Shown here: piece by piece, positions 32,842 through 63,249 of the stretch
How positions within the stretch are numbered: the first letter of the stretch is position 1
How the letters are laid out: each line of letters opens with the position of its first letter
NCBI GenBank assembly: GCA_016177405.1
Contig: JACOVG010000006.1
Location: forward strand, 10,064 to 74,063
DNA length: 64,000 bases
Reading direction: 5' to 3'
Source: Candidatus Omnitrophota bacterium
Lineage (GTDB): Bacteria; Omnitrophota; Gorgyraeia; 1-14-0-20-64-10
Notes under the pieces: generated by a model
The model's input: only the letters and a program-made list of their open reading frames with translations
Databases searched by the model: none
Told to the model about the DNA's origin: nothing
Program-made: the position numbers and the translations under genes

Positions 32842-34677
32842 CTAGATCCAACCCTTCATGCGGTAAGCCAGCAGGGCCAGGAATTCGTGCACGATCCCCC
32901 TGATCTGGCGAGGCGTGACGCTGCCATCCCGATGGTAGAAGCGGCCGCGAAGGACCGGTTGATGCACCACCTTAAGTTCCGGGGCATTCTTCCTGAAGAC
33001 CAAGTCTGCTCTTTTGGCGTGGTAAGGGGAGGTGACGAGGAGAATGGAACGCCACCCCGAGGTTTGGGCAACGGCCCGGACCCGGAGAACATATTCATAG
33101 GTGCTGCTGACGCGGGTTTCGATCAAGATCGCGCCCCTGGGAACCCCCAGGGAGGTCAAGAGCGCGCGCATGAGATCCGCCTCATGAAAAGTCCAGGTGA
33201 AGCCTGAAACCAAGAAAATACGGGGGGCGAACCCCTGCTGATAAAGCTCCAGGGCCTGTTTCGCCCGTTCCTGATAGCCTTCCTCCGGTTGACCCAGCTC
33301 CCCCACCCCGCCGCCAAAAATCACGATGGCATCCGCCGGCTGGGGGCTCTGCGCCAACCTAAGCGGGGAAGCGACAAACCAAACCAGGGGGGTCCTGAAA
33401 ACAAAGAGCGCCAGGAGAACCAGAGCGGCAGACCAGCGCAAGAGCCGCCGGGAACGCAGGAGTGAAGCGCGAAGCTTATGCATGCCGTCTTCCAGAGGGC
33501 TTGTCGTTTTCCGGGTGATCACCTCATCGATCAAGCCCTGCATCTGAACAATCCGGCTGGCCCAGCTGTTGGCCTTGGCAGCGGCAAGACGCTGTTTCAT
33601 GTCCGCTCCGCCGCCGTCTTTAAGCAGCCCATCGATGGCCCTGGAGAAATCTTCCGCGCTGTCTCCAATGGTGACCAGCTCCCCATGGCGCCGGTTGTAT
33701 TCCAAAACCTCCGGCAGGGGGGTCGAAACCACCGGCTTGCCCAGGGCATGGTACTCGTTGAGCTTCGTGGGATAAACGTTTCGCGTGTACCCCGTCAGGC
33801 GGTACGGGATGAGTCCCACATCAAACTGCTTGACGTAATGAGGCAGCTCCTGGTGAGACTTTTTCCCAAGGAAGAAAACGTTGGGGGAGCGCGCGAGCCG
33901 CTTGCAGTCCGTCTGCAGGGGGCCCACCAGGACAAAGGAGCAGTCGGGGCGCTTTTGGGCGAGCGAGGCAAAGAGCTCCTGGTCCACCCACTGATGAATC
34001 CCTCCAACGTAACCCACCACCGGATGAGGGATTCCGGACAGGTCGCCGGGCACGTGGGCCGGACCGTCCAGCGCCTGGGTGAAGGTGGGCAGATCCACTC
34101 CGAAAGGAAACAGATGCGTTTGCTTGGCCCAAGGGCTGGCGCTCCGGTGAAGAGCCCGAGAGGTGACAAAAACCAGGTCCGCCCGCCGGAACAGCTCCTG
34201 CTCGCTGGCCACAATCCGCTGCGCCGCCGGTGTCGAATCGCTGAAGCTGTCGATGCAGTAATAAATGAGCGCCTGATGGGGAACCGACCGGATGATCTCC
34301 AGGGTAAGCGGCGTGGGCAGGAAGGTCCAGAGGACCGGATGATGGAAGTCCATCGCCTCCATCCAGCGCCTTAAGGCCGTCAGAACCAGCCACCGGTTGA
34401 TCCCTTGGGCCCACCGAGAATAGGGAAAGGGCAGGACGAGGGGTGAAAAGACGTAGAGATCCCGCGCCTCTTGTCTGAACCCCTGGAGGGATTTCAGCCA
34501 GCGGAGAAGCCGGTGGCTGATCCTGGAGAGGTCCCGGAGTTGCGGGTTTCGAACACCGGTGTTCTCGACAAAAAGGACCCGGTGGCCTTTTTGAGCCAGC
34601 GTGGACATGATCTCCTGGTGCCCCTGCCAGATGAAGTCCCAGTCGATCGAGGAGATGCAAAGGATCGGCGCGGGCAT
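32842..34677 (-). CDS. Glycosyltransferase family 4 (GT-B, group 1) fused to C-terminal DUF218/YdcF(ElyC/SanA)-like domain
   Basis: N-terminal half: VGYVGGIHQWVDQELF...GKKSHQELPHYVKQFDVGLIPY...NEYHALGKPVVST (GT4 E-x7-E region); residues ~400-611: TM then DAIVIFGGGV...RIFLVSG...LLVTSPYHAKRA (DUF218). Confidence 0.7.
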   Translation of the reverse strand: MPAPILCISSIDWDFIWQGHQEIMSTLAQKGHRVLFVENTGVRNPQLRDLSRISHRLLRWLKSLQGFRQEARDLYVFSPLVLPFPYSRWAQGINRWLVLTALRRWMEAMDFHHPVLWTFLPTPLTLEIIRSVPHQALIYYCIDSFSDSTPAAQRIVASEQELFRRADLVFVTSRALHRSASPWAKQTHLFPFGVDLPTFTQALDGPAHVPGDLSGIPHPVVGYVGGIHQWVDQELFASLAQKRPDCSFVLVGPLQTDCKRLARSPNVFFLGKKSHQELPHYVKQFDVGLIPYRLTGYTRNVYPTKLNEYHALGKPVVSTPLPEVLEYNRRHGELVTIGDSAEDFSRAIDGLLKDGGGADMKQRLAAAKANSWASRIVQMQGLIDEVITRKTTSPLEDGMHKLRASLLRSRRLLRWSAALVLLALFVFRTPLVWFVASPLRLAQSPQPADAIVIFGGGVGELGQPEEGYQERAKQALELYQQGFAPRIFLVSGFTWTFHEADLMRALLTSLGVPRGAILIETRVSSTYEYVLRVRAVAQTSGWRSILLVTSPYHAKRADLVFRKNAPELKVVHQPVLRGRFYHRDGSVTPRQIRGIVHEFLALLAYRMKGWI

Positions 34678-35745: not shown

Positions 35746-36618
35746 CTAGGGCCTTCCCTTCAGGGCCGCCAATCCCAGCTCCACGTTGGAAAAGGGCTCC
35801 GCCCCGGCCGCGGACAATTTTCGTGTGCCCAAGCGGACGCGGAGAGGCCTGCGCGCCGGCTGGTGGAGCTCTTCGGTGGGGACGGCAATGACCCGGCGCG
35901 CGTCCAGGCCAAAGGAGGCGCAGATCCGATGGGCAAAATCAATCCGCGAGAGGAAGTCGGGGCCGACGGCGTGGAAGGTTCCGGTACGGTCTTTCTCCAG
36001 AAGGAATCGGGTTGCGCCCGCTACGTCCGACGTGGCGGTCGGAGACCCCCACTGGTCTGACGCCACCCGGACGGTCCCGCCGGCCACGAGCCGGTCGGCG
36101 AGCCGGAGAACGAAGTTTTTTCGGGCCTGATCAGGCCCGTAGAGGCTGGAGGTCCGCAGGATCAGGTGACTTTCCGGGAGCTCTTCGCGGACGGCCTGCT
36201 CTCCCTCCACCTTGCTTTGGGCATACCGGTTCAAGGGATGAACCGGGGACTCTTCCGAGGCGCTGGCCAAGCTCCCGTCAAAGACATGGTCCGTGGAGTA
36301 AAAAACGACGATGGCCCCCCGCCCCCGGGCCCACCGCGCCACGCTTCGCGGACCTTCCACGTTGACCCGGCGGCAGAGCTCGGCCTCACTTTCGCACCCA
36401 TCCACGTTGCAGTAGGCCCCCGCGATCAGAATCCAGTCGGGCGCGAGCCGATCGAGCAGCCTCAGGGTGCCTGCGGCATCGGCCAAATCCACCAGGGGCC
36501 TTCCGGGTTTCGGACCTCGGTGGACGGCCTCCATCACCTCGTAAGCCCCTTGAAACTTCTGGACCAAGGCCATTCCCAACTGACCCCCCGCCCCCAAAAC
36601 CAAAACCCTTCGTCCCAT
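35746..36618 (-). CDS. RmlD-like (dTDP-4-dehydrorhamnose reductase family) NAD(P)H-dependent sugar 4-ketoreductase
   Basis: MGRRVLVLGAGGQLG; YAQSK (Y-x3-K). Confidence 0.7.
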   Translation of the reverse strand: MGRRVLVLGAGGQLGMALVQKFQGAYEVMEAVHRGPKPGRPLVDLADAAGTLRLLDRLAPDWILIAGAYCNVDGCESEAELCRRVNVEGPRSVARWARGRGAIVVFYSTDHVFDGSLASASEESPVHPLNRYAQSKVEGEQAVREELPESHLILRTSSLYGPDQARKNFVLRLADRLVAGGTVRVASDQWGSPTATSDVAGATRFLLEKDRTGTFHAVGPDFLSRIDFAHRICASFGLDARRVIAVPTEELHQPARRPLRVRLGTRKLSAAGAEPFSNVELGLAALKGRP

Positions 36619-36629
36619 TCCCGAATCCT

Positions 36630-37859
36630 CTAAATCAGTTCCGGCCGGGGGATGGGAACCAGGAAGCGGCCGCCCCTTTCAGCGAACGGCCGCATCTGGG
36701 CCAGGATCTCTTCCTTGAAGTTCCACGCAAGAATCAGCATGTGCGTGGCCCCGTCCTTCCGCCAGGCCTCCGCGGAAACCACCGGCACGTGCGTGCCGGG
36801 CGTGTAGCTTCCCTGCTTTAAAGGGTTCCGGTCCAGGATCGCGGTAAGCTGTTGAGCCACGGAAGGGCAGAAGTTGAGCAGGGTGTTCGCCTTCGCCGCG
36901 GCCCCGTAACCGACGAAGCGGGCTCCGGCGGAACCCAGTGAAGCGATGAGCCCTTCGAAGGCTTCCTTCCACCGGGCCACCCGTTGGGCGAAGCCGGCGA
37001 AGGTTTCCATTCGGTGAAGGCCGTTTTCCGCCTCCGCCTTCCACATTCGATTAAGCCGCTCGGTCGTTTTCGCCGTCCCGGTCCGGTGAATGGAAAAGAG
37101 CAGCGATCCCCCGTGAAGCGGGACTGGCGAGGTGTCGGTCAGCTCGAACCCGTGGCGAGCGCACAGCTCCATCACGGGACGCAGCGAGAGATAGGAAAGA
37201 TGCTCATGGTAGATCGTGTCGAATTCCAACTGGGCCAGCAGGTTCCCCAGGTAAGGCACCTCGATCAGCAGCGTCCCCTCGGGCGCCAACCAGTGAGCCA
37301 CCGCGCGGAAGAAATCGTGCAGATTGTCGATGTGCGCGAAGACGTGGCGGCCCAGGATCACCGAGGCCTTGCCCTCCTCCGCCGCCAGGCGGCGGGCCGC
37401 GGCTTCGGTGAAGAACTCCTCCGCGGTGGGGATACCCCTTTCCCGCGCCACGGCGGCGATGTTCCGGGCAGGCTCGACCCCCAGGACGCGTGCCCCCTGA
37501 CGCTGAAAGGCCTGCAGGACCAGGCCGTCGTTGCTGCCCAGCTCCACCACCAGATCCTTTTTCCCCAGCCTCCGCCGGGCGCCCACCTCCGACGCGAGCG
37601 TGGCGGCGTACCGGCCAACCGCTTCAGAGGTTGAAGAGACGTAGAGATAATGGCGGTAGAGGATTTCCGGCGGGACCACGAAATTCAACTGGACCAGAGA
37701 GCATTGGGGGCAGGCCGAAACCGCGAGCGGGTAGGATTTTTCCAGCGGGAACTCCTCCGCGGAAGAGAGAAAGGCGTTGGCCAGCGGCATCTCCCCCAAG
37801 TCCAGGAACGGCTCGGGCAGCGGTGTCGCGCAGATTCTGCAGCGGCTATGGGCAGGCAC
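36630..37859 (-). CDS. SAM-dependent sugar C-methyltransferase (TylC3/NovU-like; Zn-ribbon + MTase + C-methyltransferase C-terminal domain)
   Basis: CRICATP...CPQCSLVQL zinc ribbon; VVELGSNDG motif I; ~409 aa three-domain architecture typical of NDP-hexose C-methyltransferases. Confidence 0.7.
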   Translation of the reverse strand: MPAHSRCRICATPLPEPFLDLGEMPLANAFLSSAEEFPLEKSYPLAVSACPQCSLVQLNFVVPPEILYRHYLYVSSTSEAVGRYAATLASEVGARRRLGKKDLVVELGSNDGLVLQAFQRQGARVLGVEPARNIAAVARERGIPTAEEFFTEAAARRLAAEEGKASVILGRHVFAHIDNLHDFFRAVAHWLAPEGTLLIEVPYLGNLLAQLEFDTIYHEHLSYLSLRPVMELCARHGFELTDTSPVPLHGGSLLFSIHRTGTAKTTERLNRMWKAEAENGLHRMETFAGFAQRVARWKEAFEGLIASLGSAGARFVGYGAAAKANTLLNFCPSVAQQLTAILDRNPLKQGSYTPGTHVPVVSAEAWRKDGATHMLILAWNFKEEILAQMRPFAERGGRFLVPIPRPELI

Positions 37860-39081
37860 TCGGCCTCCCCCTAAAGAACCCGGTCAAACCAAAGGAGGCC
37901 ACCACCACCAGAAGAGACTCCACCTCCCACCGGTGCCTCCCCTCGACAAAAACCAAGCTTTGAACCACGCTGATCGCCAGCGTAAACAGCACGATCAACC
38001 AGAGCCCGGATTTCTGCCCACGCTTTATGAGGGAGACCGCCCCGGCGGCCGCGAAGGCCAGCAGCAGGAGGTAGTAGATCCTGTACCACCGGGTCCACCG
38101 GCCCGGATACCAGGCCCCGGTCCGGGGGCTTCCTCCCCAGAACTGGAGCCATTTAGAGAGATTGTTGCGCAGGGCAAGTCCCGGGTTCAACCGCACGAAC
38201 GAAAGGGCCTCCCGGAGAAAGAAGTCCATCTGCCCCTTTTCATCCAGGGCGGCGGCCGTTCGAACAAATTCCGGAGGCATCCTCTCCAGCATTGCGCGCC
38301 CCTCATGGTCCAAGGCGCTCCCCGTGGCCCCGGCATGATTTCCAACCCAGAAGCTGTAGGCCGAAGAGCTCAACATCCCGACCGGACGCCCCACCACGAT
38401 TTGATTCCGAAGCACCCAAGGCAGGGCCAAGGCGGCCGCCAACGAGAGGATCACCGCCACTCTCTGAAGCCGCCTGGCCTGTCCCTTCCACCTTACCCAG
38501 AGCCACACCACCACGAGCGGAACGGCCGCCAGGACCGTGGATCTGGACAGGAGGCCCCACCCCAAGGCAATTCCTAAAGCGATCACCCTTGGCCAGGAGC
38601 TTGCCGCCCCAGAGCTCCTTCCCGCCGCCAGGGTCAGCCACACGATCGTCAGGAAACAGAGGCTGTCCAACCACAGGGCATGGGGCCGGAGGCTGTAGAT
38701 AACCAGCCCCGGGTGAAGCACCACCCCGGCCGCCGCCAAAACCCCGGTCCATTCGCTCCCCAGATTCTTGCCGATTTGAAAGACGATCCATGCCGCGAGC
38801 GCCGCGAGCGAAGCCTGCGCCCACTGCACAGCCAGGATGGAGGGATGCCCCACGAGTTGATAGACCCCGGCGCAAAACCACGGATAGAAGGGGTGCACAA
38901 AGGCATGGTACGTGGTGCCCAGAAAGGTCGCTTCAAAACCCCGGCCCGCCAGCAGGTTCTGGGCAATCTCCTCGTATTCCCAGGGTTTCGCCAGCCATTC
39001 CCGCGGGCCCCACAGGAGAATGGCGGCCCTCACCAGAATTCCGGCTGCCATCACCACCAGCAAGGCATGGCGCTTCTTCAT
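37846..39081 (-). CDS. GT-C fold membrane glycosyltransferase, PMT/ArnT (GT39/GT83)-like
   Basis: 411 aa polytopic membrane protein; N-terminal MKKRHALLVVMAAGILVRAAILLWGPREWL...EYEEIAQNLLAGRGF, pattern typical of ArnT/PMT-family. Confidence 0.65.
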   Translation of the reverse strand: MKKRHALLVVMAAGILVRAAILLWGPREWLAKPWEYEEIAQNLLAGRGFEATFLGTTYHAFVHPFYPWFCAGVYQLVGHPSILAVQWAQASLAALAAWIVFQIGKNLGSEWTGVLAAAGVVLHPGLVIYSLRPHALWLDSLCFLTIVWLTLAAGRSSGAASSWPRVIALGIALGWGLLSRSTVLAAVPLVVVWLWVRWKGQARRLQRVAVILSLAAALALPWVLRNQIVVGRPVGMLSSSAYSFWVGNHAGATGSALDHEGRAMLERMPPEFVRTAAALDEKGQMDFFLREALSFVRLNPGLALRNNLSKWLQFWGGSPRTGAWYPGRWTRWYRIYYLLLLAFAAAGAVSLIKRGQKSGLWLIVLFTLAISVVQSLVFVEGRHRWEVESLLVVVASFGLTGFFRGRPSACP

Positions 39082-39084
39082 GGA

Positions 39085-40041
39085 TCAGGCCTTTCGCGCG
39101 CGAACCAGAACCACTTGTCCGTTTCCCAAAAGACCCTCCATCAACGAAACGAGACACGCCGGAAGCCCCAGCCCGGCCAGAAACAAAAGGTGCAGCCCTG
39201 TCATGAAGCGCTCTTTCCAAGTGCCGGTCCAGCCGTTTCGCACGAATCCAAAGAGCCGATCCCTGGGGCCGGGCAGGCCATTGAGCCAGGACTGAACGCA
39301 CCCGAAGGGGCCGTGCTCCCAGCTCACGTGGAACGCCTCCTCGACGACGAACCCGCAGCGCCTTAAGAAACGATAAAGGTTATCCCTTCCGAACGTCCAA
39401 AGGTGGTGCTCCGGGTCGTGGTGGAGCCAGCGCTTGCCGGTCCATCGCGCGGTCCAGGAATCCCCATTGGGCACCTCGCACCAGAAGCTGCCCCCAGGGC
39501 GCAGGATCCGGTGAACCTGGCGGAGGTAACGCTCCGGCTCCGGCAGGTGCTCCAGGACGTTGATCATGAGCGCCGCGTCGAAGCCGCCTTGGGCGAAAGG
39601 GGCCGCGGTCAGCTCACCCACAAAAACCTCTATCCCGTAGCGCTCCCGCGCGAAGCGGGCGGCCGTCCGCGAGAGCTGGGTTCCGTAAACCCGGCAGCCG
39701 TTTTCCTTGAGAAGGTGGAGGAGCTCCCCGCGCTCACAGCCAATGTCGCAGATCCGGGCGCCCGCGGGCGAGCGCTTGAGGATCCTCCTGGCCTTCTGAC
39801 GCCGGAAACCACGCCACAGGAGGTCAAATAATCCTGACACCCTTTGGGCTGATCCGTCGGCGTAATAGCGCTGGTAGCGGTCCCCCTCCGCGATCATCTC
39901 CTGCCCCACGCGGAAGCAGCCGCAGGCAAGGCACCGGAAAAGGCTGAAGCTCTCCTCGCCCGGCGACACCTCCTCCCAGGCCTCCGCCAGGCACACCGGG
40001 CATGTCAAAGACGGCCCGAACCGAACCGTTTTTTCTTCCAC
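39085..40041 (-). CDS. SAM-dependent methyltransferase with N-terminal zinc ribbon
   Basis: CPVCLAEAWEE...CLACGC ribbon; ICDIGCERGELL motif I; INVLEHLPEPE; start uncertain (GTG 40041; ORF track 40278 would overlap upstream gene by 270 nt). Confidence 0.6.
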   Translation of the reverse strand: MEEKTVRFGPSLTCPVCLAEAWEEVSPGEESFSLFRCLACGCFRVGQEMIAEGDRYQRYYADGSAQRVSGLFDLLWRGFRRQKARRILKRSPAGARICDIGCERGELLHLLKENGCRVYGTQLSRTAARFARERYGIEVFVGELTAAPFAQGGFDAALMINVLEHLPEPERYLRQVHRILRPGGSFWCEVPNGDSWTARWTGKRWLHHDPEHHLWTFGRDNLYRFLRRCGFVVEEAFHVSWEHGPFGCVQSWLNGLPGPRDRLFGFVRNGWTGTWKERFMTGLHLLFLAGLGLPACLVSLMEGLLGNGQVVLVRARKA

Positions 40042-40751
40042 GGCGGTCTTTTCAGAGCGGAAAGAAAGGTGCTCCAACTGTACCGGAAGAGCCCTCCCAC
40101 GTCCAGGGAGGAGCTCTCCGAATCGTACCGCACCGGCACCGGGATCTCTCCCACCCGCCAGCCCATCATCACGCAATCCATCAGGATGTCGCTGGCGAAG
40201 GCGTGGCTGTCCGGGTAGCTCTCCAGCGGAAGCTGCTCCAGCACTTGAGCCCTGAAGGCCTTCATTCCGGAGTGCCATTCCCCAAGGCTTAAACCGAACC
40301 AGACGTTCTCAAAGAAGGTGAGAATCCTGTTTCCGAAATAGCGATACCACGGCATTCCGCCGGCGAGGGCCTCGTCCCGGCTTCGGATCCTACTGCCCTG
40401 CATGACATCAAAATACCCTCGGCGCAGGTACTCCACCAGGATCCCCACCAACCGAGGGTCGTACTGACCGTCCGGATGCAGCTCCACCACGATCTGGGCG
40501 CCTCCTCGGAGGGCCTCACGGAAGAGGCGCTTAAGGTTACCGCCGTAGCCGTGGTTTGCCTCGTGGCGCAGGACCCGGATGCCCAGCCCTTGGGCGATTC
40601 TGTCCGTCCCATCGGTGCTCCGATTGTCCCCCAGCAGGACGGTTTCCCGGAATTCTTCCGGAAGGGCCCGGTAGGTCTTCTCCAGCGTGCGAGCCGCGTT
40701 GAAGGCCGGCATCACCACGGCCACCCGGAGAGAACGTGCCGCTTGAACCAC
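40005..40751 (-). CDS. GT2 polyprenyl-phosphate sugar synthase (DPM1/ArnC-like)
   Basis: VAVVMPAFNAARTL...LLGDNRSTDGT... short (248 aa) DPM1-like GT2; directly upstream of a GT-C membrane transferase (ArnC/ArnT-like pairing). Confidence 0.75.
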   Translation of the reverse strand: MVQAARSLRVAVVMPAFNAARTLEKTYRALPEEFRETVLLGDNRSTDGTDRIAQGLGIRVLRHEANHGYGGNLKRLFREALRGGAQIVVELHPDGQYDPRLVGILVEYLRRGYFDVMQGSRIRSRDEALAGGMPWYRYFGNRILTFFENVWFGLSLGEWHSGMKAFRAQVLEQLPLESYPDSHAFASDILMDCVMMGWRVGEIPVPVRYDSESSSLDVGGLFRYSWSTFLSALKRPPWKKKRFGSGRL

Positions 40752-40760
40752 GTAAGTCTG

Positions 40761-41210
40761 TCAGCGGTCCTTCAAGCGCCAATCGTACGGGATCCGGCTC
40801 GACTGGGGATCGAGCCGTTCGATTTCAGCGGGATCATGCGGGATGTCCGCGCAGTTGGCGACGATCGCCGTCTTCGTTCCCATCCCCTTGAAGCCGTTCC
40901 AAATGAGGGGGGGCACCTTGACCAAGCAGTAGTTGGACTCTCCGAGGAAGAGCTCCTCAATCTTCCCGCGGGTGGGCGACTGGGGGCGGTCGTCAAAGAG
41001 AACCAGCTTGATCACCCCCACCACCACCGCGTAGTGAATCGTCATGCGGGAATGAAGGTGCCAACCCTTCACCACCCCAGGATAAACGCAGGAGAAATAG
41101 ATCTCCCCGAAGCGCTCAAAATGAGGGTCGGTGGCCTTCATCATGTGCATGACCTTGCCCCGCTCATCCGGGATCTGCGTGAGCGGATGGATCAGGACCC
41201 CTTCAATCAT
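40761..41210 (-). CDS. Cupin-fold sugar-nucleotide isomerase (RmlC 3,5-epimerase / FdtA 3,4-ketoisomerase family)
   Basis: 149 aa; [18 protein letters not shown] with paired His typical of FdtA/WxcM-C/RmlC cupins. Confidence 0.65.
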
Positions 41211-42252
41211 TGAATAGTCTCACTCCCTCCGGCGTCACCCGCGGCCGATCGGCGCCTTCAAGGAACTTTCGATACCAAGAGATGGTTTTTTTGAGGCCCT
41301 CCTCCAAGCCATAGAGGGATTTCCAGCTCAACTGGCGCTTGGCTTTGCCGGCATCCAGATACTGGTGGAGAATCTCGCCGGAGGATTCGTTCAGGATCTT
41401 GGGCGCGAGATCGGCACGTCCCATCAAACGCAGAATTTGCCGCGCGACCTCCAGAACGGAAAGGGGCTGTTCGTTGCTGAAGTTAAACGCCTCGCCGGCC
41501 AGGGAGGGATCGGACGCCAGCGCCTCGGCCAGCGCAAGGTACGCCGCCGCGCCGTCTTCAACATAAAAATAGTCACGGGTGGGCGAACCATCGCTTCGGA
41601 TAAGCGGCGGTTCGCCCCGGATCGCCGAGCGGATGGTGCCTGGAACAATCCGATTCCAATTCAAGTCTCCCCCGCCGTAGAGATTCCCACAGCGGGCAAT
41701 CGTCACCGGCAAACGGTAGGTCGCGGCGTACGACTGGGCCAGCAAATCCGCGCAGGACTTGCTCACATCGTACGGATGCCGGCCCCGCAGAGGGGTCTCC
41801 TCCCGGTAGGGAAGCTTGTCATGCTCACCGTAGGCCTTGTCCGAGGAGGCCACCACCGCCTGCCCCACGGTGGGCGAACGCCGGCAAGCCTCCAGGAGGC
41901 ACCACGTCCCCCGGATGTTGCTCTCAAAGGTAGAGACCGGGTTGCGGTTGGCGATGGGCACAATCGCCTGGGCTGCCAGATGAAAGAGGGTCTGGACCTC
42001 GTACTCTCCCAGGACACGCTCCAAAAGAGCCTGATCCTGCAGCTCGCCCCGGACCACCTTGATCCTCTCCAAAAGCCCTGATTGGCACAGCTCCGACTGC
42101 GGCACCCAGTCCCGAAGCAGGGTCACGCAGTCCGCGCCCAAGTCATAGAGCGCCCGGATAAGCCAGCCCCCCAGAAGGCCGGTTCCCCCGGTGACCAAAA
42201 CCCTCCGGTCGCGCCAGAAGGTCTTCACAGCGGCGATCAAGTTCACGGCCAT
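41203..42252 (-). CDS. rfbG: CDP-glucose 4,6-dehydratase
   Basis: ATG 42252; [20 protein letters not shown] matches RfbG N-terminus (FW-x-GK-V-VTGHTGFKGSWL); YDVSK catalytic motif. Confidence 0.8.
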
Positions 42253-43067
42253 ATCTTCCAAGGGGCCTTCCCCTTCTCCCACAAATCGTTGATCAACCGG
42301 TATTCCCGAAGGGTATCCATGGCCTGCCAGAAACCGTCATGCCGAAAAACCATGAACTCTCCATCCTGGGACAAACGCTGGAGAGGCTCCCGTTCCAAGA
42401 TGAGATCCTCCCGGGGCGTCAGATACCGGTCCAGGAAGGAGCGTTTAAAAACAAAGAATCCCCCGTTGATCATCCCCTCCGTTGTTTGGGGCTTCTCGTT
42501 AAACTGCTCGGCCTGGCCGGATGCCGTCACCTTCAGCTCGCCGAACCGGCCCGGCGGACGCACGCCGGTGACCGTCCCTATCCGGCCGTGGGCCTGGTGG
42601 AACCGCAACAGGGCCGTCAGGTCAATGTCCCCAAGCCCGTCCCCGTACGTCAGGCAGAAGACCGGCTCGGTGACGTACCGGCCGGCCCGAGCCACGCGGG
42701 CGCCGGTCTGGGCGTTCAACCCGGTTTCCACGAGGGTGACCTCCCAGTCCTCCTGCTCGTTTTTGCTGTGGTATTGGATCCGGTCGGAATCTCCCAGACG
42801 GAGGGTCAGATCGCTCTGGTAGGCCCGGTAGTTCAGGAAATAGTCCTTGATCATGGCGCCCTTGTAACCCAAACAAAGAATAAATCTCCTGAAACCGTAC
42901 GCGGCGTACACCTTCATGATGTGCCAGAGGACGGGCCGCCCCCCGATTTCTAAAAGCGGCTTGGGCCTGAATTCCGTCTCCTCATGAAGACGGCTCCCTT
43001 GGCCTCCGCAGAGGATTATGACCGGCGGCTTATCCAATTTAAGAACCCTTTCCGATTTTTCCACCAT
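42243..43067 (-). CDS. rfbF: Glucose-1-phosphate cytidylyltransferase
   Basis: ATG 43067; [43 protein letters not shown] = RfbF signature; 60-aa ORF-track N-terminal extension is GC-rich, not credible. Confidence 0.8.
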
Positions 43068-43260
43068 TGGTTCAGCACGCTCCCTCGCCAAAGCCGATCC
43101 CAGCCCTCCTCTTCCCGAATGGCAGCCACCCCCCACGCCAGCCACGCGAGGCGCAGACCCCATCCTAGCACAGTGAGGCTCTTGCCCAGGAGATAAAGCG
43201 CCGCCAGCTCGCTCACGCCAGAGGCCACCACAAAGGTCCCTGCCCACTTCACCGAAAAGG

Positions 43261-45513
43261 TCATCCGGTCCTCCAGCGCCCCCTGGGGGACATGAGGAAC
43301 CAGGCCCCCGCGCAGGCGAACATCAGGTAAAGGGGCGCCACCATGTCCCGGATTCTGAAGACGGTTCCCACGTTACCGCTGCCGATGGCGCTGACAAAGG
43401 ACCACAGCGCAAGCGGTATGAAAAGGAAGAGGGTCTGCCGATACCGATGCCGAAACGACCAGAGGATTCCCACCCCCGAGAGCCCCAGGGCCGCGTACCA
43501 GAGAAACATCTGCGGCCACGTCACCCAAGGAAAGGCAGGCTGCCGGATGCCTGGGATCGGTTCCAACAGGTAATGCGCCAGGGCCTTCAGGATTCCGGTG
43601 ATCTCAATCCAGCCAATCCTGCCGGTTTTGCTCCACTGTGAAACGTATCCCTGAACGTAATAGGAATCCGGAAGAAACCGATAGGACATGCCCGGCGTCA
43701 TCGCGAATCCGGCGTGCCACTCGAAGGCCAGGCTCAAGAAACGGTTCACGAGAAGCCCCACAGGCTTGAGGAACAGGCACCCCAGCGCCCCGGCCGCGGC
43801 GAGAGCCCCCTGCCAGGGTTTTATCCTCAAGCGGGTGAGACCATAGGCCAGGCCCAATCCCGCCACCAGGATCCAGGTGAACTCGGCGGAGCGGATCGTG
43901 GCGTGAAGGACGATCGTCCCCGCCAGCGCAAGACCATACCTAAGCAGCCGCGCGCGCCCCCCTCCCCAGGGGAGCCGCTGGAATAAAAAGAGCACCACGA
44001 GGGTCGTGAAAATGAGGGGAATGTCCTTCAAGTTGGAAACGGACCACAGCAGCATGGACGGGAAGAAGGCCACGGCCAAGGCCGACCACCGGGCGACCGT
44101 AAGGTTGAAAGCGATTCGGGCGATGAGAAAAACCAGGGGCCCCAGCAGAGCTCCCAGAAAGCAGTTGATGAGCTTGACGGCATAGGGGCTGTAGCCGAAC
44201 AGGGTATAGAACCACCCCATCGCGTAGACGTAGCCGTTCCATCCATACTGGTTGATCCGGAAGATAACGACCGGTTCCCGCACCCCCTTCGCGTACTGGG
44301 AGAGGGCGTACCCCCGCTGCGAGTAATAGTCGCTGTCTCCGATTTTAAGATACATCCGGGTCTTGTCAACCACCCCCAAACTCCAATCGTTGGCCGGACC
44401 GGTCCAGCGGGGCTTCTCTCCCTCCACCCGCCAGGAGCCCGCATCGAGCCCCAAGGAAAGAGCTGCCCGAAGACAAAATCCGACTAAGAATAGCGTGGAC
44501 ACGAAGCGGCGGCCTTCCCCGCCGACCAGGCGGCGGAGAAAGAAGAAAAGCCCCCCCGCCAAGGCAAAGACAAAAACGCCTCCAGGCGTCCAGGCGGTCA
44601 AGATCCCGGCGGCGATCCCCGCGGCAACCCCGTTCTTTATTCGCCGCAGACGGCGAAGAGGCATCCCGGCGACGTAAGGAATCACCCGAGGAGAGGTTCG
44701 AACGGCCTTGAGCCCCCACGCGAGCCCACGGGCCCACTGCTTGTTTCTGACGTAACCGCCGGAGAGCATCGCATAAAATCTGGCCCACACGAGCGGCTTA
44801 AGCCGGAGAAGTTCTCCGTTGAGCCCCGGCGAGCGGAAGAAGCGCCTTAAAAGGCGCACCCCCGACCAAAGGTGGATCTTCACATCCCGGCTTTGGTTGT
44901 TGGGGTACTGGCGGTACAGCACCAGCGCTTTGGGAACGGAGCGGAGCGTCCCGGAGCGGCTCAACCGGCAGACCATATCCCAATCGGAAAGGATCACCAG
45001 ATCCGTCCCGAACCCCCCCAGCTTCAGGAGCGCTTCTTTCCGGATCACCACAGCGGAGGCGAAGGCAGGCAGATTCCTAAAAAGGAGAAAATCGGACAGG
45101 GTATCCCGCCGGGGATGGCAAAGCTTGGTCTCCAGGATTCGCAGTTTATCGTCCACGTAGTGGGCCCCGCACTGGACCGCCAGGAGGGCCGGTTCCTCCT
45201 GAAACGCCCGCATCTGAATCTCCAGCTTGTCCGGCAGCCACAGGTCATCCCCGTCCAGGAAGGCCACAAATCGGCCGCTGGCGTGCTGGACACCCAGATT
45301 GCGGGCGGAGCCGGTGCCTCCGTTGGGCTTTTGAAGATAACGAACGCGCGGGAGGAAGGGCTTGACCCGGTCGGCCGTGTGGTCGGTCGAGCCATCGTCC
45401 ACCACCAGGATCTCCGTGTGGGGATAGGTTTGAGCCAAGACACTGCGGATGGCCGCCTCCACCGTGCTCTCCTTGTTGTAGGCCACAATGACGACCGAGA
45501 CAAGTTCCGACAT
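43261..45513 (-). CDS. GT2 domain fused to large polytopic membrane domain (750 aa)
   Basis: N-term VSVVIVAYNKESTV...ILVVDDGSTDHT...FLDGDD (GT2); residues ~280-750 contain >=10 hydrophobic segments. Confidence 0.7.
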   Translation of the reverse strand: MSELVSVVIVAYNKESTVEAAIRSVLAQTYPHTEILVVDDGSTDHTADRVKPFLPRVRYLQKPNGGTGSARNLGVQHASGRFVAFLDGDDLWLPDKLEIQMRAFQEEPALLAVQCGAHYVDDKLRILETKLCHPRRDTLSDFLLFRNLPAFASAVVIRKEALLKLGGFGTDLVILSDWDMVCRLSRSGTLRSVPKALVLYRQYPNNQSRDVKIHLWSGVRLLRRFFRSPGLNGELLRLKPLVWARFYAMLSGGYVRNKQWARGLAWGLKAVRTSPRVIPYVAGMPLRRLRRIKNGVAAGIAAGILTAWTPGGVFVFALAGGLFFFLRRLVGGEGRRFVSTLFLVGFCLRAALSLGLDAGSWRVEGEKPRWTGPANDWSLGVVDKTRMYLKIGDSDYYSQRGYALSQYAKGVREPVVIFRINQYGWNGYVYAMGWFYTLFGYSPYAVKLINCFLGALLGPLVFLIARIAFNLTVARWSALAVAFFPSMLLWSVSNLKDIPLIFTTLVVLFLFQRLPWGGGRARLLRYGLALAGTIVLHATIRSAEFTWILVAGLGLAYGLTRLRIKPWQGALAAAGALGCLFLKPVGLLVNRFLSLAFEWHAGFAMTPGMSYRFLPDSYYVQGYVSQWSKTGRIGWIEITGILKALAHYLLEPIPGIRQPAFPWVTWPQMFLWYAALGLSGVGILWSFRHRYRQTLFLFIPLALWSFVSAIGSGNVGTVFRIRDMVAPLYLMFACAGAWFLMSPRGRWRTG

Positions 45514-45525
45514 GGGCTTAGCGTC

Positions 45526-46866
45526 TCACCATGGGTCAGGCACCTCGCCCAACAGAGAAAGCACCAGCGCGCCGGCCTCCGGCTCGGGTTCCCCTCTCCG
45601 GCCTGTCGGGAAAAACAGCTGGATCCGTTCCCCGAAGCGGATGGGCTGCTCTCGATAGAAATATCGGATTCCCTCCGATGAGGAGAGCGCTTCGCCGTTT
45701 AAGATAAGCGTCAACAGGGAGAGGTCCTGCCGAATGACGGAAACCCCCTCCACCTGCCCTTCGTACCATCTCCAGGGGCGCCCGAAGGACCGTTTCCCAG
45801 CCAGTTTCTCCAGGGCCCTGGGTGTCAGGCCATCGGCCGCAACCAGCACTTTCAAAAAGGCGGTTCTCCGGGTTCCGGTCTCCTCCGGCGGATGAGGCCA
45901 GGAGATCACCGTGGCGGTGATCGGAATAAGGGGCCAGCCCCATGAGGTACTGGGAATGCCGATGGAAATCACCGCGCCCGGCTGGATCAGCTGACCCCTG
46001 TAGCGGTAGCCTCGAATCCCCGCCCCGTTGGACTCCTCCTCCCCCGTCAGTTGAACTCGCAAAAGAGCCGTGTTTTCCCCCAGGGAAACGTCCGCCTCCA
46101 GGATCCTCCCCGAGTCCAGGGACGCCCTGGAAGGCAGGAACCTTCCGCACCGGAGCGCTCGAACCGCCTCGGGTGAAAGGCCGGTAGCCGCGCAGGTCAC
46201 CCACCGGCGCGCGGGGGTAAGTTTTGAGATCTCGAAGGCCTCTTTCAGGGTCGCCTCCCGGCCGTTGGTATTGGTCACCCTCACATCGTATTTCCCCGGC
46301 GGCAGATCCAGGGAGATGTGGTTCAGCACAATCTGCTCGGGCTGGAACCGCAGCGAAGACGACGGATCCAGCGCGAGGAGACGGTCCACCGCGACCGGCC
46401 CCAAGCGGATGGCCCCCAGGGAGTCGAAGCGGTTTCCTTCAATACTGAAGGTGATCACCTCTCCGGAGAGGAACTCGGTCGGATGGACCCTTTTAATCGT
46501 GGGCTGCCAGACGATTTCCAGGGAATCGTTCATCCAGGCCCTCTCCCCTTTCCCATTCTCCACAAAAACGCTGTAGCGGCCTTCGGGCCAGTCCTTAGGC
46601 AGTTCATAGTCCGCGCGGATGGGGTTCACGGAAGAGAGTCTCTTCAACGGATAGGGAACCAGGTAGCCGTGGGGTTCGAGGGCGAGCCCCGTCCCAAATA
46701 TATTGATCCTCTGGGCGGGCCCTTCCTTTGTCGCCAGCAGGCCGGGCTCCAAGCGGTAGAGCTTGAGGCGGTCATGGCCGGCCAGATTCAGCCCGTAGGA
46801 GCCCGTCGTCCAGAGGAAAGGCAGGAGGAAGAGACCGATGGCCCCATCGAGAAGATTCGGCCTCAT
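45526..46866 (-). CDS. Predicted exported protein (signal peptide), unknown function
   Basis: MRPNLLDGAIGLFLLPFLWTTGSYG signal-like N-terminus; 446 aa, no motif recognised. Confidence 0.5.
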   Translation of the reverse strand: MRPNLLDGAIGLFLLPFLWTTGSYGLNLAGHDRLKLYRLEPGLLATKEGPAQRINIFGTGLALEPHGYLVPYPLKRLSSVNPIRADYELPKDWPEGRYSVFVENGKGERAWMNDSLEIVWQPTIKRVHPTEFLSGEVITFSIEGNRFDSLGAIRLGPVAVDRLLALDPSSSLRFQPEQIVLNHISLDLPPGKYDVRVTNTNGREATLKEAFEISKLTPARRWVTCAATGLSPEAVRALRCGRFLPSRASLDSGRILEADVSLGENTALLRVQLTGEEESNGAGIRGYRYRGQLIQPGAVISIGIPSTSWGWPLIPITATVISWPHPPEETGTRRTAFLKVLVAADGLTPRALEKLAGKRSFGRPWRWYEGQVEGVSVIRQDLSLLTLILNGEALSSSEGIRYFYREQPIRFGERIQLFFPTGRRGEPEPEAGALVLSLLGEVPDPW

Positions 46867-47813
46867 GGGGCCGCCTGGAGGGCGGGCGCCCCCCGGAAGA
46901 ATGGAATCAGATTCTGGACCGCCCGCAGCTCCATCCGCGTCCTGGAGGCCCGGGTAAGCGAGGCGATGTGCGGGGTCAGCAGAACCTGCGGCATATGAGA
47001 CAGCGGGCCCACGTAAGGTTCGGTCTCAAAAACGTCCAGCGCCGCGGAGGAAAGACGGCCCGATTGGAGGGCCCCCACCAAGGCCGCCTCATCCACCAGA
47101 TGGCCCCGGGCCGTGTTGACCAGCCGGGCGCCCGGTTTCATCTGGGCAAACTCCCTGGAGCCCAAGACCGGCCCCTGTCTCGGGTCCCTTGCCGCGTGCA
47201 GGGAAACCAAATCGGACTGCGCCAGAAGGTCAGCCAGCGGCAGATTCGAGACCCCTTCCGGGCGCTGTCCTGCCGGGAGGACCGGGTCGCAGACCAGGAT
47301 CCTGGGCCCAAAGGGGCGCAGGAGTTTTTCCACCGCCTGGCCGACCCGGCCAAACCCGATCAAACCGATGCTCCACTCCGAGAGAAGATGCCCCACCTGT
47401 TTTTTCCAAAGACCCTGATCGAGATTCCTCAAGTGAAGGGGAAAATCCCGCGCCAGGGCCAGGATCATGCCGACCGTGATCTCCGCCACCGGGGCAGTCA
47501 CTTCCTCGGGCGTGGTGAGAACCGCGATCGCAAGTTCGGAAGCCGACGCCAGATCGATGGAATCGGTCCCTGTGCCGCATCGGCTGATCACCTTGAGATT
47601 CTTCAGGGACTGAAGAAGCCTTCTGTCGTAGGGCTCCACACCGGCCACGACCGCATCCGCCCGCGCGAGCAGGGAGGCCATCTCCTCTCCCTTCAAGCGC
47701 CTGCCCAGAGGGTTACGATGAATCTCAAAGCCGGCCTCCCGGAGAAGCTGAAGCGGCCGGTCGTCCGACTCGCCAAATTGCGCGAGCGCCACAAAAACCA
47801 CCGGCTGTTTCAC
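46863..47813 (-). CDS. D-isomer-specific 2-hydroxyacid dehydrogenase (PGDH-like)
   Basis: IGLIGFGRVGQAV NAD-binding motif; catalytic-domain/NAD-domain architecture, 316 aa. Confidence 0.8.
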   Translation of the reverse strand: MKQPVVFVALAQFGESDDRPLQLLREAGFEIHRNPLGRRLKGEEMASLLARADAVVAGVEPYDRRLLQSLKNLKVISRCGTGTDSIDLASASELAIAVLTTPEEVTAPVAEITVGMILALARDFPLHLRNLDQGLWKKQVGHLLSEWSIGLIGFGRVGQAVEKLLRPFGPRILVCDPVLPAGQRPEGVSNLPLADLLAQSDLVSLHAARDPRQGPVLGSREFAQMKPGARLVNTARGHLVDEAALVGALQSGRLSSAALDVFETEPYVGPLSHMPQVLLTPHIASLTRASRTRMELRAVQNLIPFFRGAPALQAAP

Positions 47814-48583
47814 CCCTTCAGCACCTGATGAAGAACCGCCCTCTGAAGGGGATCCTGGTCCAGGAGGTGTTCCACGGCTTTCACCTCGCCTGGGAGGTTG
47901 ATCCCCGCATACCCTCGAGGGAAGGCAATCCCCTGCAGGAGGACGTCGTGCTCCAGGATTCTGGATTGGTCCACCGACTCCAGGGTCTCAAGCGGCGTGC
48001 GGGCAAGTCCAGGATAGCGTTGAAGAAAATCCTGCCGGTAGCCCAAGATCCCCAGGATCTTACGCACCGGCTGCGCCCCGTTGCCGGCCGCCTTCAGGTG
48101 GGAGAAATTCCGGCCGCAAAAGAGTATCCTCCCGGAAACCGAAACGACGCACTTGACAACCGAGGGATCACCAAGCTCGCCAGGGGTTTCCAGAGAGGCC
48201 ACGGCGTTCCAAGCGGCCAGCTCGGGCCGCTGCCCGATGGCCTGAACCAGGCTCTCTAAATCACGAGGCAAAACCAGGATCTCATCCCCTTGAACATTCA
48301 CCACATGGGTGCAGTCCAGCTTCCCCGCCGCCTCCGCCACCCGGTCCGTTGCCGCCGGATGCCTGGAGGAAGTCATCAGCACCCGGCCGCCGGAACGCTC
48401 AACCACTTGGGCGATCTGGCGATCGCAGGTCGCCACCACCACTTCCTCGAAGCCCTTGCACAGCGCTGCCCTGCGGCGGACGTGCTCGATCATGGGGAGG
48501 CCCCGGATCTCCACCAGGGGCTTGCCCGGGAATCGACTGGAGGCCATCCGGGCCGGTATGATGCAGGCCACCCGCGTGCCCAT
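47810..48583 (-). CDS. KdsB-like cytidylyltransferase (CMP-3-deoxy-ulosonic acid synthetase family)
   Basis: ATG 48583 (TAATG overlap with upstream stop): MGTRVACIIPARMASSRFPGKPLVEIRGLPMIEHV matches KdsB IIPARYASTRLPGKPL; ORF-track 139-aa extension is read-through across upstream gene. Confidence 0.75.
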   Translation of the reverse strand: MGTRVACIIPARMASSRFPGKPLVEIRGLPMIEHVRRRAALCKGFEEVVVATCDRQIAQVVERSGGRVLMTSSRHPAATDRVAEAAGKLDCTHVVNVQGDEILVLPRDLESLVQAIGQRPELAAWNAVASLETPGELGDPSVVKCVVSVSGRILFCGRNFSHLKAAGNGAQPVRKILGILGYRQDFLQRYPGLARTPLETLESVDQSRILEHDVLLQGIAFPRGYAGINLPGEVKAVEHLLDQDPLQRAVLHQVLKG

Positions 48584-49344
48584 TACTGGGGCAGGGTCCC
48601 GCAATCCACGTTGAGGCACTGACCGGTGATCGCCGAAGCCTCCGGCGAGGCCAAGAAGTAGACCACCTGCGCCACTTCGTGAACCGTCGGCAGCCGGCCC
48701 AGGGCCGTTTGGGTGGCGGCGAAGGAGGCGAGATACCCGCTCACATCCTCGCCATGGGCGGGCGAAGCGGGCTCGGAAAGAGAGCTCAAGATCTGTTCCG
48801 TCTCCACATAGACCGGGCAGACCGCGTTGACGCGGATCCCTTGGGGCCCAAGCTCCTTGGCCAGGGCCTGGGTGATGCCGTTGACCGCGAACTTCGCGGC
48901 GCAATAAACGCTGTTGTTGGCCGAGCCGCGCTTGCCTGCCAGAGAGGAGACATTGATCAGGGCCCCTCCTTCCTTCAGGGCGGGAGCCGCCGCCGCGCAC
49001 CCCCAGAGGGTCCCCAAGATGCTGGTCTCCAGGATCTCCAAGGCAAACGGCTCGTCAATCTCCGTCAGGCCGCGCCACCTGGAAATCCCCGCGCAGTTGA
49101 CGAATACCTCCAGAGACCCGAATTGCTTAACAACCTTCCCAACAAAATCACGGGCTTGCTCCCGCTGTCGAACCTCCAGGGTAAAGTGAGCGATCGAAGA
49201 TTCCAAGCCGGGGTCCCGGGGCGACCGGGAACCCACGGCCACCCGGTAGCCTCGAGAGGCAAAAAGCTCGGCCACGGCCCGGCCGATCCCCCGGTTGCCG
49301 CCGGTGACCGCCACCACCGGCCGCGATTCTCCCGAAGGAGTCAT
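48583..49344 (-). CDS. SDR-family oxidoreductase
   Basis: VVAVTGGNRGIGRAV; NCAG; YCAAK. Confidence 0.8.
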   Translation of the reverse strand: MTPSGESRPVVAVTGGNRGIGRAVAELFASRGYRVAVGSRSPRDPGLESSIAHFTLEVRQREQARDFVGKVVKQFGSLEVFVNCAGISRWRGLTEIDEPFALEILETSILGTLWGCAAAAPALKEGGALINVSSLAGKRGSANNSVYCAAKFAVNGITQALAKELGPQGIRVNAVCPVYVETEQILSSLSEPASPAHGEDVSGYLASFAATQTALGRLPTVHEVAQVVYFLASPEASAITGQCLNVDCGTLPQ

Positions 49345-57595: not shown

Positions 57596-57609
57596 GGAGA
57601 AACCTGCCG

Positions 57610-59797: not shown

Positions 59798-59846
59798 CGT
59801 AAACCTTTATTGTACCACCAGCGCTTGCCGGCGCAGATCCCAAATG

Positions 59847-60539: not shown

Positions 60540-60546
60540 GGACAGT

Positions 60547-61671: not shown

Positions 61672-61690
61672 AGGGACGGGCACCTTGGCA

Positions 61691-63211: not shown

Positions 63212-63249
63212 TTTTTTCGGCTCCCAGGTGATAACGTTCTTCCGGAAAC

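Follow-up and report, generated by a model that had tools for sequence, protein, structure and literature searches.

The 64,000-nucleotide stretch of Candidatus Omnitrophota DNA analysed here (assembly GCA_016177405.1, contig JACOVG010000006.1, positions 10,064 to 74,063; hereafter the window) carries approximately 58 tightly packed genes, all on the minus strand and interrupted by only two gaps longer than 60 nucleotides (nt), at a G+C content of 60-64%. According to Pfam and NCBIfam scans, nearly all of them encode glycosyltransferases (GTs), with GT1, GT2 and GT4 enzymes present, or enzymes of sugar-nucleotide synthesis and modification, and the region is probably part of a single-strand surface-glycan cluster of more than 64 kb in an uncultured member of the Omnitrophota. 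A six-frame hydropathy scan recognised four genuine polytopic membrane proteins in the 64 kb, namely an ATP-binding cassette (ABC) exporter and three proteins of 411, 774 and 750 amino acids (aa), which were predicted earlier to be GT-C-type transferases served by lipid-linked sugars. These three and the two GT2 enzymes of 248 and 272 aa named with them in the original prediction are all present as open reading frames (ORFs), and each polytopic protein belongs to a gene set of its own: module 1 (35746-43067) with the 411-aa protein, module 2 (55271-61713) with the 774-aa protein and module 3 (43016-50159) with the 750-aa protein. We consider it likely that at least three GT-C-fold membrane glycosyltransferases of this cluster add rare sugars on the periplasmic face. 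The analysis itself yields gene content, assignments to families or folds, topology logic, fused and split gene arrangements and synteny; donors, acceptors, order of reactions and flippase are what we infer.

The 411-aa protein passes the Pfam family PMT_2 (PF13231) with 33.8 bits against a gathering score of 26.1 (E 4.9e-8, profile positions 4-152 of 160), and most of its homologues carry PF13231 as well. Hydropathy indicates about 8-10 hydrophobic helices, and a WEYE motif stands directly after the first transmembrane (TM) helix, in a short first loop, with E35 nearly invariant among 14 aligned sequences; the presumed orientation of the protein would place this loop in the periplasm. Among Logan metagenome contigs, 13 carry this protein.

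The 774-aa protein is 100% identical to the NCBI entry HYS41_01545, named hypothetical protein, and gave no Pfam or NCBIfam match even at E≤10, YfhO included. Its family profile retrieved 14 cluster representatives among 1.84 billion, and a pattern-based scan of 185,579 species genomes found relatives in two, labelled Omnitrophota and Planctomycetia. A profile search of PDB sequences with the family (A1) returned no meaningful match, and hhalign found no relationship to the two PMT_2-like families (probability ≤0.2%). A GT-C fold is predicted by the AlphaFold2 (AF2) model (pLDDT 78.7, pTM 0.81): in a Foldseek search of the PDB, ArnT (5f15) was the best match (E 4.2e-7, TM-score 0.56 on target), followed by EmbC, AftD, STT3 and PglB, the top 15 structural matches were all GT-C enzymes, and transporters and other non-GT-C matches had probabilities of at most 0.15. 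The model comprises a helical TM core up to approximately residue 500, a mixed alpha/beta domain of about 250 aa (500-750) and a terminal helix (751-773), in agreement with hydropathy, and D49, just past the first TM helix, is invariant even in members that are 25% identical. The earlier description of this protein as YfhO-like holds for the layout, with a large extracytoplasmic domain set between the penultimate and the final TM helix, and for the GT-C fold class; it does not extend to family membership, as neither YfhO (PF09586) nor any other Pfam family matched any of the 16 family members.

The 750-aa protein joins a GT2 domain to a polytopic half with approximately 10 hydrophobic helices (hydropathy). 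On its own, this C-terminal half reaches PMT_2 with E 2.2e-4 and 21.9-22.3 bits, below the gathering score of 26.1. We nevertheless assign it to GT-C because its stand-alone homologues (467-481 aa, 43-47% identical) carry PF13231, and in one case also PF02366, because hhalign links it to the 411-aa family (86.6% probability, E 4.4e-6, 180 columns), and because a GDSDYY motif, situated in the loop after the third helix with D-S-D at about residues 393-395, is invariant in its family. Arg-rich segments lie ahead of the first helix and between helices two and three, so that, by the positive-inside rule, the GT2 domain would be cytoplasmic and the DSD loop periplasmic. The fold of the membrane half rests on sequence evidence, since the top 50 Foldseek matches of the full model were GT-A proteins only; a profile search of PDB sequences with this half (A6) gave no meaningful match.

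The GT-C nature of all three polytopic proteins, as originally proposed, is thus borne out by PMT_2 for the 411-aa protein, by homologues and hhalign for the fusion and by the predicted fold for the 774-aa protein. That they are instead Wzy/WaaL-type polymerases or ligases, or transporters, the outcome named in the original prediction as its refutation, is hardly credible in our view, even though the 774-aa protein has no sequence-family assignment and the Wzy, WaaL and Wzx functions are unaccounted for in the window: the Pfam and NCBIfam scans assigned none of the three to a transporter, polymerase or ligase family, PMT_2 evidence exists for two of them, and the structural matches of the third point to GT-C enzymes rather than transporters. 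The genes of the three modules and further features of the window are listed in Table 1.

Table 1. Features of the three modules and of the remaining window (positions within the window).
Feature	Position	Strand	Evidence or remark
Module 1
RmlD-like nucleoside diphosphate (NDP)-4-ketohexose reductase	35746-36618	minus	RmlD_sub_bind 2.4e-64; TIGR01214 223.9 bits vs cutoff 224.05
NDP-hexose C-methyltransferase	36630-37859	minus	Methyltransf_13 5.7e-21 and Methyltransf_14 3e-46; overlaps GT-C stop by 14 nt
GT-C, 411 aa, compact PMT_2-type	37846-39081	minus	Pfam PMT_2
S-adenosylmethionine (SAM)-dependent methyltransferase, 318 aa, C-terminal hydrophobic tail anchor	39085-40041	minus	Methyltransf_23/11/25 E 8e-25
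GT2, 248 aa, TM-less, nearest polyprenyl-phosphate glycosyl synthases	40005-40751	minus	Pfam GT2 E 3.8e-18
Cupin, RmlC-like NDP-4-keto-6-deoxyhexose epimerase/isomerase	40761-41210	minus	Pfam dTDP_sugar_isom E 4.9e-10
CDP-glucose 4,6-dehydratase-like (RfbG-like) short-chain dehydrogenase/reductase (SDR)	41203-42282	minus	TIGR02622 E 2.6e-61, 207.7 bits, under 278 cutoff
Glucose-1-phosphate cytidylyltransferase RfbF	42243-43067	minus	TIGR02623 331.6 bits, above cutoff 300.25; 274 aa in Logan contigs
Module 3
Tentative 82-aa two-TM hairpin protein	43016-43264	minus	called in Logan contigs; overlaps fusion stop by 4 nt
Fusion, 750 aa: GT2 (residues 1-~294) and PMT_2-like GT-C (~295-750)	43261-45513	minus	GT2 E 3.5e-35
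IPT/TIG-like protein, 446 aa, N-terminal hydrophobic segment	45526-46866	minus	conserved neighbour of module 3 GT-C
PGDH-like 2-hydroxyacid dehydrogenase	46863-47813	minus	sugar-acid branch
KdsB-like cytidylyltransferase	47810-48583	minus	KdsB subfamily model 203.3 bits, above 193 cutoff
Two SDRs	49341-50159, 48583-49344	minus	sugar-acid branch upstream of module 3
Module 2
GT-C (predicted), 774 aa, rare unannotated family	55271-57595	minus	AF2 model and Foldseek
SDR	57610-58440	minus	module 2 sugar tailoring
DegT/ArnB/PseC-like aminotransferase	58415-59797	minus	module 2 sugar tailoring; ArnB-like 102 bits
GT2, 272 aa, TM-less, DPMS/ArnC/GtrB class	59847-60665	minus	GT2 E 2e-28
Non-hydrolysing UDP-GlcNAc 2-epimerase WecB	60547-61713	minus	TIGR00236 303 bits, above 210 cutoff
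Elsewhere in the window
SPASM radical-SAM enzyme	14946-15959	minus
Two B12-radical-SAM enzymes	16533-18092, 61691-63334	minus
HepA/MsbA-like ABC exporter, fused transmembrane and nucleotide-binding domains	29038-30882	minus	ABC_membrane and ABC_tran

Module 1 is transcribed in the order RfbF, RfbG-like dehydratase, cupin, GT2, methyltransferase, GT-C, C-methyltransferase and RmlD-like reductase. The predicted CDP-hexose/C-methyl branch is real, with RfbF scoring above its cutoff; however, the GT2 and the GT-C are embedded within this branch rather than lying downstream of it, and they do not follow each other directly, as the 318-aa methyltransferase, overlooked earlier, sits between them. Its anchor corresponds to a hydrophobic segment at residues 362-392 of a longer ORF (318 aa is the length called in Logan contigs), and a spacer of 3 nt separates it from the GT-C start. 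The arrangement recurs in related loci, which we designate by L numbers. L015, whose GT-C is 71% identical, repeats the order from RfbF to the C-methyltransferase exactly; in L011, a 53%-identical GT-C (P0119) bears a fused C-terminal methyltransferase domain, and the gene upstream of it encodes a methyltransferase-GT2 fusion with the DPM1-type DAD motif in its GT2; and in L016, a 41%-identical GT-C closes an operon of GT2, DegT, acyltransferase and ArnD-like deacetylase genes. Because the association of GT2, methyltransferase and GT-C recurs, including two independent fusions, we count the methyltransferase as a member of module 1, and its tail anchor suggests that it works at the membrane, plausibly on a lipid-linked sugar.

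The three best NCBIfam matches of the 248-aa GT2 are PpgS (6.5e-21), AglJ and Dol-P-hexose transferase (to 2.4e-13), all polyprenyl-phosphate sugar synthases; judged from its sequence, membership of this class is probable but not secure. We propose that RfbF makes CDP-glucose, which the dehydratase, cupin, C-methyltransferase and reductase would turn into a CDP-6-deoxy-C-methyl-hexose; the TM-less, probably DPM1-class GT2 would then charge polyprenyl phosphate with this 6-deoxy-C-methyl-hexose, the tail-anchored methyltransferase would probably O-methylate the sugar at the membrane, and, after flipping, the compact PMT_2 GT-C would hand it to a pre-formed acceptor. Vinelose, a CDP-6-deoxy-3-C-methyl-2-O-methyl-hexose, is known from Azotobacter, and the module 1 gene set would suit a sugar of this type.

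The 272-aa GT2 of module 2 clearly falls, by sequence comparison, into the DPMS/ArnC/GtrB class: its matches among PDB sequences are DPMS 5mlz (9.3e-19), three ArnC entries (approximately 1e-18), PcManGT (2e-13) and GtrB 5ekp (7e-11), whereas glycan-acting GT2 structures match it no better than 8e-7, and its best NCBIfam match is ArnC PRK10714 (1.3e-20). WecB is likely the entry point of the sugar branch. The DegT aminotransferase and the SDR separate the GT2 from the 774-aa protein, so that this second pair is not contiguous; what remains of the two ArnC/ArnT-like pairs is two GT2s, one clearly and one probably of the polyprenyl-phosphate class, each in its own nucleotide-sugar branch, as expected from an Arn/Gtr-like logic, with neither directly adjacent to its GT-C. 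Following the same logic as in module 1, WecB, the SDR and the ArnB-like aminotransferase would build an amino sugar, the ArnC-class GT2 would load it, and a new GT-C family with YfhO-like layout, structurally nearest ArnT, would transfer it. Genes related to that of the 774-aa protein are followed directly by a small GT2 gene, the product of which is only about 30% identical to the GT2s of the window. In L010 (7593-12214), from a metagenome-assembled genome labelled Planctomycetia, two tandem paralogues of the 774-aa family (777 and 737 aa) are followed by a 233-aa GT2 and NeuB. In the window, a gene for a 550-aa soluble protein with no family match (53611-55263, minus strand) lies directly downstream of the 774-aa GT-C gene.

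Module 2 could also be read as a true Arn-type lipid A modification that places an amino sugar on lipid A phosphates, given that ArnC is the best NCBIfam match and among the best PDB matches of its GT2, that the aminotransferase is ArnB-like (102 bits), that the 774-aa model matches ArnT best among solved structures and that an ArnA-like formyltransferase is encoded elsewhere in the window (25120-25914). We regard this as decidedly unlikely, however: every score falls far under the equivalog cutoffs, the module lacks an ArnD-like deformylase and ArnE/F, ArnT has no counterpart to the large periplasmic domain and the terminal TM helix of the 774-aa protein, which shows no detectable sequence similarity to the PMT_2/ArnT families, and WecB indicates a ManNAc-derived sugar rather than 4-amino-4-deoxy-L-arabinose (L-Ara4N).

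For the fusion of module 3, the original reading of a GT2 joined to a polytopic part stands. Its GT2 is not DPM1-like. The closest PDB sequences of this GT2 are K4CP (3.9e-23), a Leptospira GT, GalT1, heparosan synthase, WrtF, SpsA, a PglI-like enzyme, TarP and RmlT, with TuaG, EpsD and WcaA as NCBIfam neighbours; Foldseek with the fusion model ranked the neighbours of the GT2 domain in the same way, and neither DPMS nor ArnC nor GtrB matched it at E≤1e-3 among PDB sequences. Both sequence and predicted structure thus place it in the SpsA/K4CP/WcaA class of glycan-elongating Leloir type, not in the DPM1 class, and the fusion is, because of these neighbours, probably not a lipid-phosphate-sugar synthase joined to its own transferase.

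The search yielded a single further full-length fusion (P0021, 50% identical). In L007 and L008, separate genes for the GT2 (313 aa, 66% identical) and the GT-C (476 aa, PMT_2) overlap by 7 nt, preceded by genes for two SDRs, a KdsB-like cytidylyltransferase and a 2-hydroxyacid dehydrogenase and followed by a TIG-like gene; in L014, the orthologous GT2 is joined to a methyltransferase and adjoins GT-C genes. The genes of the sugar-acid branch are 59-69% identical and syntenic in L007, L008, L013 and L014. Since the orthologous GT2 and GT-C are adjacent separate genes in these relatives, the fusion is a Rosetta-stone event uniting two functionally coupled neighbours. We propose that it unites in a single chain an active site on the cytoplasmic side and another on the periplasmic side, and that its two domains most likely share one lipid-linked glycan as substrate, the first acting before flipping and the second after it.

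A self-contained arrangement, in which the GT2 charges polyprenyl phosphate with the product of the KdsB-like and 2-hydroxyacid dehydrogenase branch and the attached GT-C uses this donor, would parallel modules 1 and 2 with their one sugar branch and one GT2 per GT-C. The conserved module (SDR, SDR, KdsB-like, 2-hydroxyacid dehydrogenase, GT2, GT-C, TIG-like) has no further GT and, in particular, no GT2 of the DPM1 class, the GT2 and the GT-C are adjacent or joined in all four loci examined, and a cytidine monophosphate (CMP)-activated donor might require a different GT2 subclass. Yet in sequence as well as in predicted structure, the GT2 sits among Leloir enzymes that act on glycan acceptors (K4CP, SpsA, WrtF, TuaG, WcaA, PglI), it shows no significant match to DPMS, ArnC or GtrB, and we know of no GT2 that uses a CMP-sugar or makes a polyprenyl-phosphate-ulosonic acid, which we count against this arrangement; overall, it appears rather doubtful to us.

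Two neighbours accompany the fusion. The 446-aa protein has no Pfam or NCBIfam match, but is 26% identical (E 1e-22) to the product of the gene after the GT-C in L007, which shows a faint TIG match, and a gene resembling it comes after the fusion of L013; the protein could serve as an acceptor, as a partner that binds the acceptor or as a factor setting chain length. The 82-aa hairpin ORF occupies the only large gap of its region and has weak, gapless similarity to small ORFs beside the module in L007 (~12630-12859) and L013 (18533-18898), as well as to C-terminal extensions of the stand-alone GT-C P0029 and of the L014 GT-C gene ending at 8004. All share the pattern PLRxxG-TM-LG(K/Q)T-W-TM-DWxxVRxGSVL. 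The hairpin is probably a detachable two-helix appendage of the GT-C family of the fusion. Several GT87-family (PF09594) GT-C genes stand beside PMT_2-type ones in related Omnitrophota loci (L007 12859-18485, L009 1-753, L014 2779-4092 and 9775-10713), and heavy use of periplasmic GT-Cs therefore looks like a trait of the lineage and not a peculiarity of the window.

The conserved, membrane-anchored IPT/TIG-like protein beside the module 3 GT-C also bears on whether the GT-Cs might be PMT-like protein O-glycosyltransferases acting on secreted or membrane-anchored proteins, of which this neighbour would be an example. PMT_2 similarity in two of the three GT-Cs and the lack of an O-antigen ligase, a polymerase and an initiating phosphoglycosyltransferase in the window (hydropathy scans) would be consistent with such a role. 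PMT_2, however, also spans lipid and glycan transferases of the ArnT kind, no MIR domains, a usual mark of PMTs, were detected, the TIG-like protein could equally well be an acceptor-binding accessory, and the many Leloir GTs together with the MsbA/HepA-like exporter fit a lipid-linked polymer. We consider protein O-glycosylation unlikely.

How the lipid-linked sugars would cross the membrane is less apparent from the gene content. The original prediction had suggested looking for GtrA-like flippase genes nearby; two hydropathy scans of the 64-kb window revealed no small ORF with several TM segments of the GtrA/SMR kind, although no GtrA profile scan of small ORFs was made. The hydropathy scans likewise found no further polytopic protein, and hence no MATE, Wzx, Wzy, WaaL or initiating-transferase candidate. 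The ABC exporter, the sole transporter encoded in the window, reaches 393.8 bits with HepA_fam and 365 bits with MsbA, both below the cutoffs, and has homologous genes in L009 and L016; it is the only candidate flippase in the window for the lipid-linked sugars or the glycan.

These missing membrane proteins weigh against periplasmic glycosylation from lipid-linked rare sugars, and so do several features of the modules. The 248-aa GT2 scores 74.8 bits with PpgS, far under the equivalog cutoff of 370, and its sole PDB sequence match, DPMS 5mlz, is weak (E 2.7e-4); the 272-aa GT2 reaches 73.6 bits with ArnC against an equivalog cutoff of 529; and, according to hydropathy, neither has the TM helices that ArnC and GtrB carry at their C-termini. 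The GT-C assignment of the 774-aa protein is built on an AF2 model from 19 sequences with a low-confidence first loop. In L012, a GT-C of the 411-aa family occurs in an unrelated, non-glycan context with no GT2 nearby. Finally, a DPM1-class GT2 is missing from module 3, which leaves the donor source of its GT-C unexplained. The proposal that the three GT-Cs add rare sugars on the periplasmic face nevertheless remains the reading that we favour.

A bolder hypothesis combines two ideas. In the first, the 750-aa protein, like its split orthologues, would be a two-faced enzyme of a so far undescribed kind, in which a non-DPM1 GT2 charges polyprenyl phosphate with an ulosonic or sugar acid that the KdsB-like and 2-hydroxyacid dehydrogenase branch supplies in CMP-activated form, and the covalently linked GT-C flips and transfers the product without a separate flippase, maybe aided by the two-TM hairpin; in the second, the 774-aa proteins would be the founding members of a new GT-C family in CAZy. 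We would give this combination little credence as a whole.

The sugar genes of the window include RfbF, RfbG, the C-methyltransferase, RmlD-like reductases, WecB and NeuB, together with four cytidylyltransferase genes (KdsB-type and other CTP_transf_3), DegT aminotransferases, a formyltransferase, WbuX, AsnB, an amidase and a GNAT enzyme. At least 10 SAM methyltransferases and three radical-SAM enzymes are encoded in the window, a load that suggests heavily C- and O-methylated sugars. Gene sets typical of nonulosonic/ulosonic acid pathways with amidino or acyl modifications were observed at 2334-8585, 13368-14147 and 22922-27960; they hold NeuB, several CTP_transf_3 cytidylyltransferases, DegT aminotransferases and the ArnA-like formyltransferase, as well as a PIG-L deacetylase, an amidase, GNAT and the N-acetyl sugar amidotransferase WbuX (340 bits, above cutoff). 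A small GT2 at 23742-24458, considered as a fourth lipid-phosphate synthase, was rejected as EpsD/EpsE-like rather than DPM1-like. At 32842-34677 (minus strand), a GT1/GT4 glycosyltransferase is joined via one TM helix to a DUF218 domain, and this fusion recurs in a longer form (about 1000 aa) beside AsnB-like amidotransferases in related Omnitrophota loci (L007 from 20460, L009 2425-5412). Omnitrophota cells are often very small and possibly host-dependent, and the lineage is expected to be diderm.

Periplasmic glycosylation by GT-C enzymes from lipid-phosphate sugars is well known in a few models, namely Gtr, Arn, CsbB/YfhO and the mycobacterial arabinan pathway. The window suggests that the same logic is used repeatedly, and with rare sugars, in an uncultured phylum of the Planctomycetes-Verrucomicrobia-Chlamydiae (PVC) group. 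The 774-aa family, with its 14 representatives, offers a testable sequence-orphan GT-C family, and the naturally fused proteins, in which a GT-C is joined to a cytoplasmic GT-A or, in a different case, to a methyltransferase, argue for membrane complexes spanning both faces. Modules without a recognisable flippase also bear on how polyprenyl-phosphate sugars cross the membrane. In the literature, we found nothing specific on GT2-GT-C fusions or on glycosylation in Omnitrophota.

In the Gtr system, the flippase GtrA, the undecaprenyl-phosphate-glucose synthase GtrB and a GT-C designated Gtr* accomplish O-antigen glucosylation in Shigella and Salmonella (PMC11127046). Modules 1 and 2 resemble it in combining a GT2 of the DPM1 class (clearly so in module 2, probably in module 1) and a GT-C in one operon, with predicted cytoplasmic loading of polyprenyl phosphate and periplasmic transfer to a pre-formed glycan. 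They differ from it in that no GtrA-like gene was seen here in the hydropathy scans, that the GT2s lack the two C-terminal TM helices of GtrB, that the predicted rare-sugar donors come from dedicated branches in the same operon, and that a methyltransferase is an integral, sometimes fused, member of the module. The Arn pathway (ArnB, ArnC, ArnA, ArnD, ArnT and ArnE/F) adds L-Ara4N to lipid A. Module 2 shares with it an ArnB-like aminotransferase, an ArnC-class GT2 and a GT-C model nearest ArnT, and the related locus L016 has an ArnD-like deacetylase between GT2 and GT-C. In contrast to Arn, module 2 scores far under the equivalogs, has no deformylase or ArnE/F and begins its branch with WecB, and its GT-C, which has no sequence similarity to ArnT, adds to the ArnT layout a periplasmic domain of about 250 aa and a terminal TM helix.

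YfhO has 13 TM helices, the last two of which enclose a large extracytoplasmic loop; CsbB/YfhO act, with GtcA, in lipoteichoic acid glycosylation in Bacillus subtilis, and GtlA/GtlB in Listeria, where GtlB is a compact 8-TM PMT_2 protein with acidic residues in a short first loop (PMC5836110). The 774-aa protein is comparable to YfhO in layout and the 411-aa protein to GtlB in size, layout and short acidic first loop, and both are operon partners of a GT-A GT2, as are YfhO and GtlB. Unlike in CsbB/YfhO, the 774-aa family has no PF09586 match, GtcA is missing and the host belongs to the Omnitrophota. The best NCBIfam match of the module 1 GT2, PpgS (NF058614), is what we take to be mycobacterial Rv3631 of the polyprenyl-phosphate-GalNAc system with Rv3779. 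This synthase, like the module 1 GT2, has no TM helices, and its GT-C partner decorates a cell-wall glycan made beforehand. The module 1 GT2 differs from PpgS/Rv3779 in its score far below the cutoff, its CDP-based donor branch with C-methylation and its phylum.

A sequence-orphan GT-C recognised by its predicted fold, with a lipid-phosphate-sugar synthase in a glycan locus, is also found in the Citrobacter youngae ORF12-15 pentofuranose system, which founded GT136 and employs a phosphoribosyl pyrophosphate-dependent donor synthase and a MATE flippase (PMC11127046); here, by contrast, the synthase is GT2-type and no flippase is evident. Compared with Gtr, Arn, CsbB/YfhO and PpgS/Rv3779 together, five differences stand out: no small flippase, synthases free of TM helices, a methyltransferase integral to the module, a sequence-orphan GT-C family and a GT-A/GT-C fusion with a GT-A of the 'wrong' class for a donor synthase. 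With these differences, the cluster is a variant of the known three-component periplasmic glycosylation and not a wholly new system, and the current models stand.

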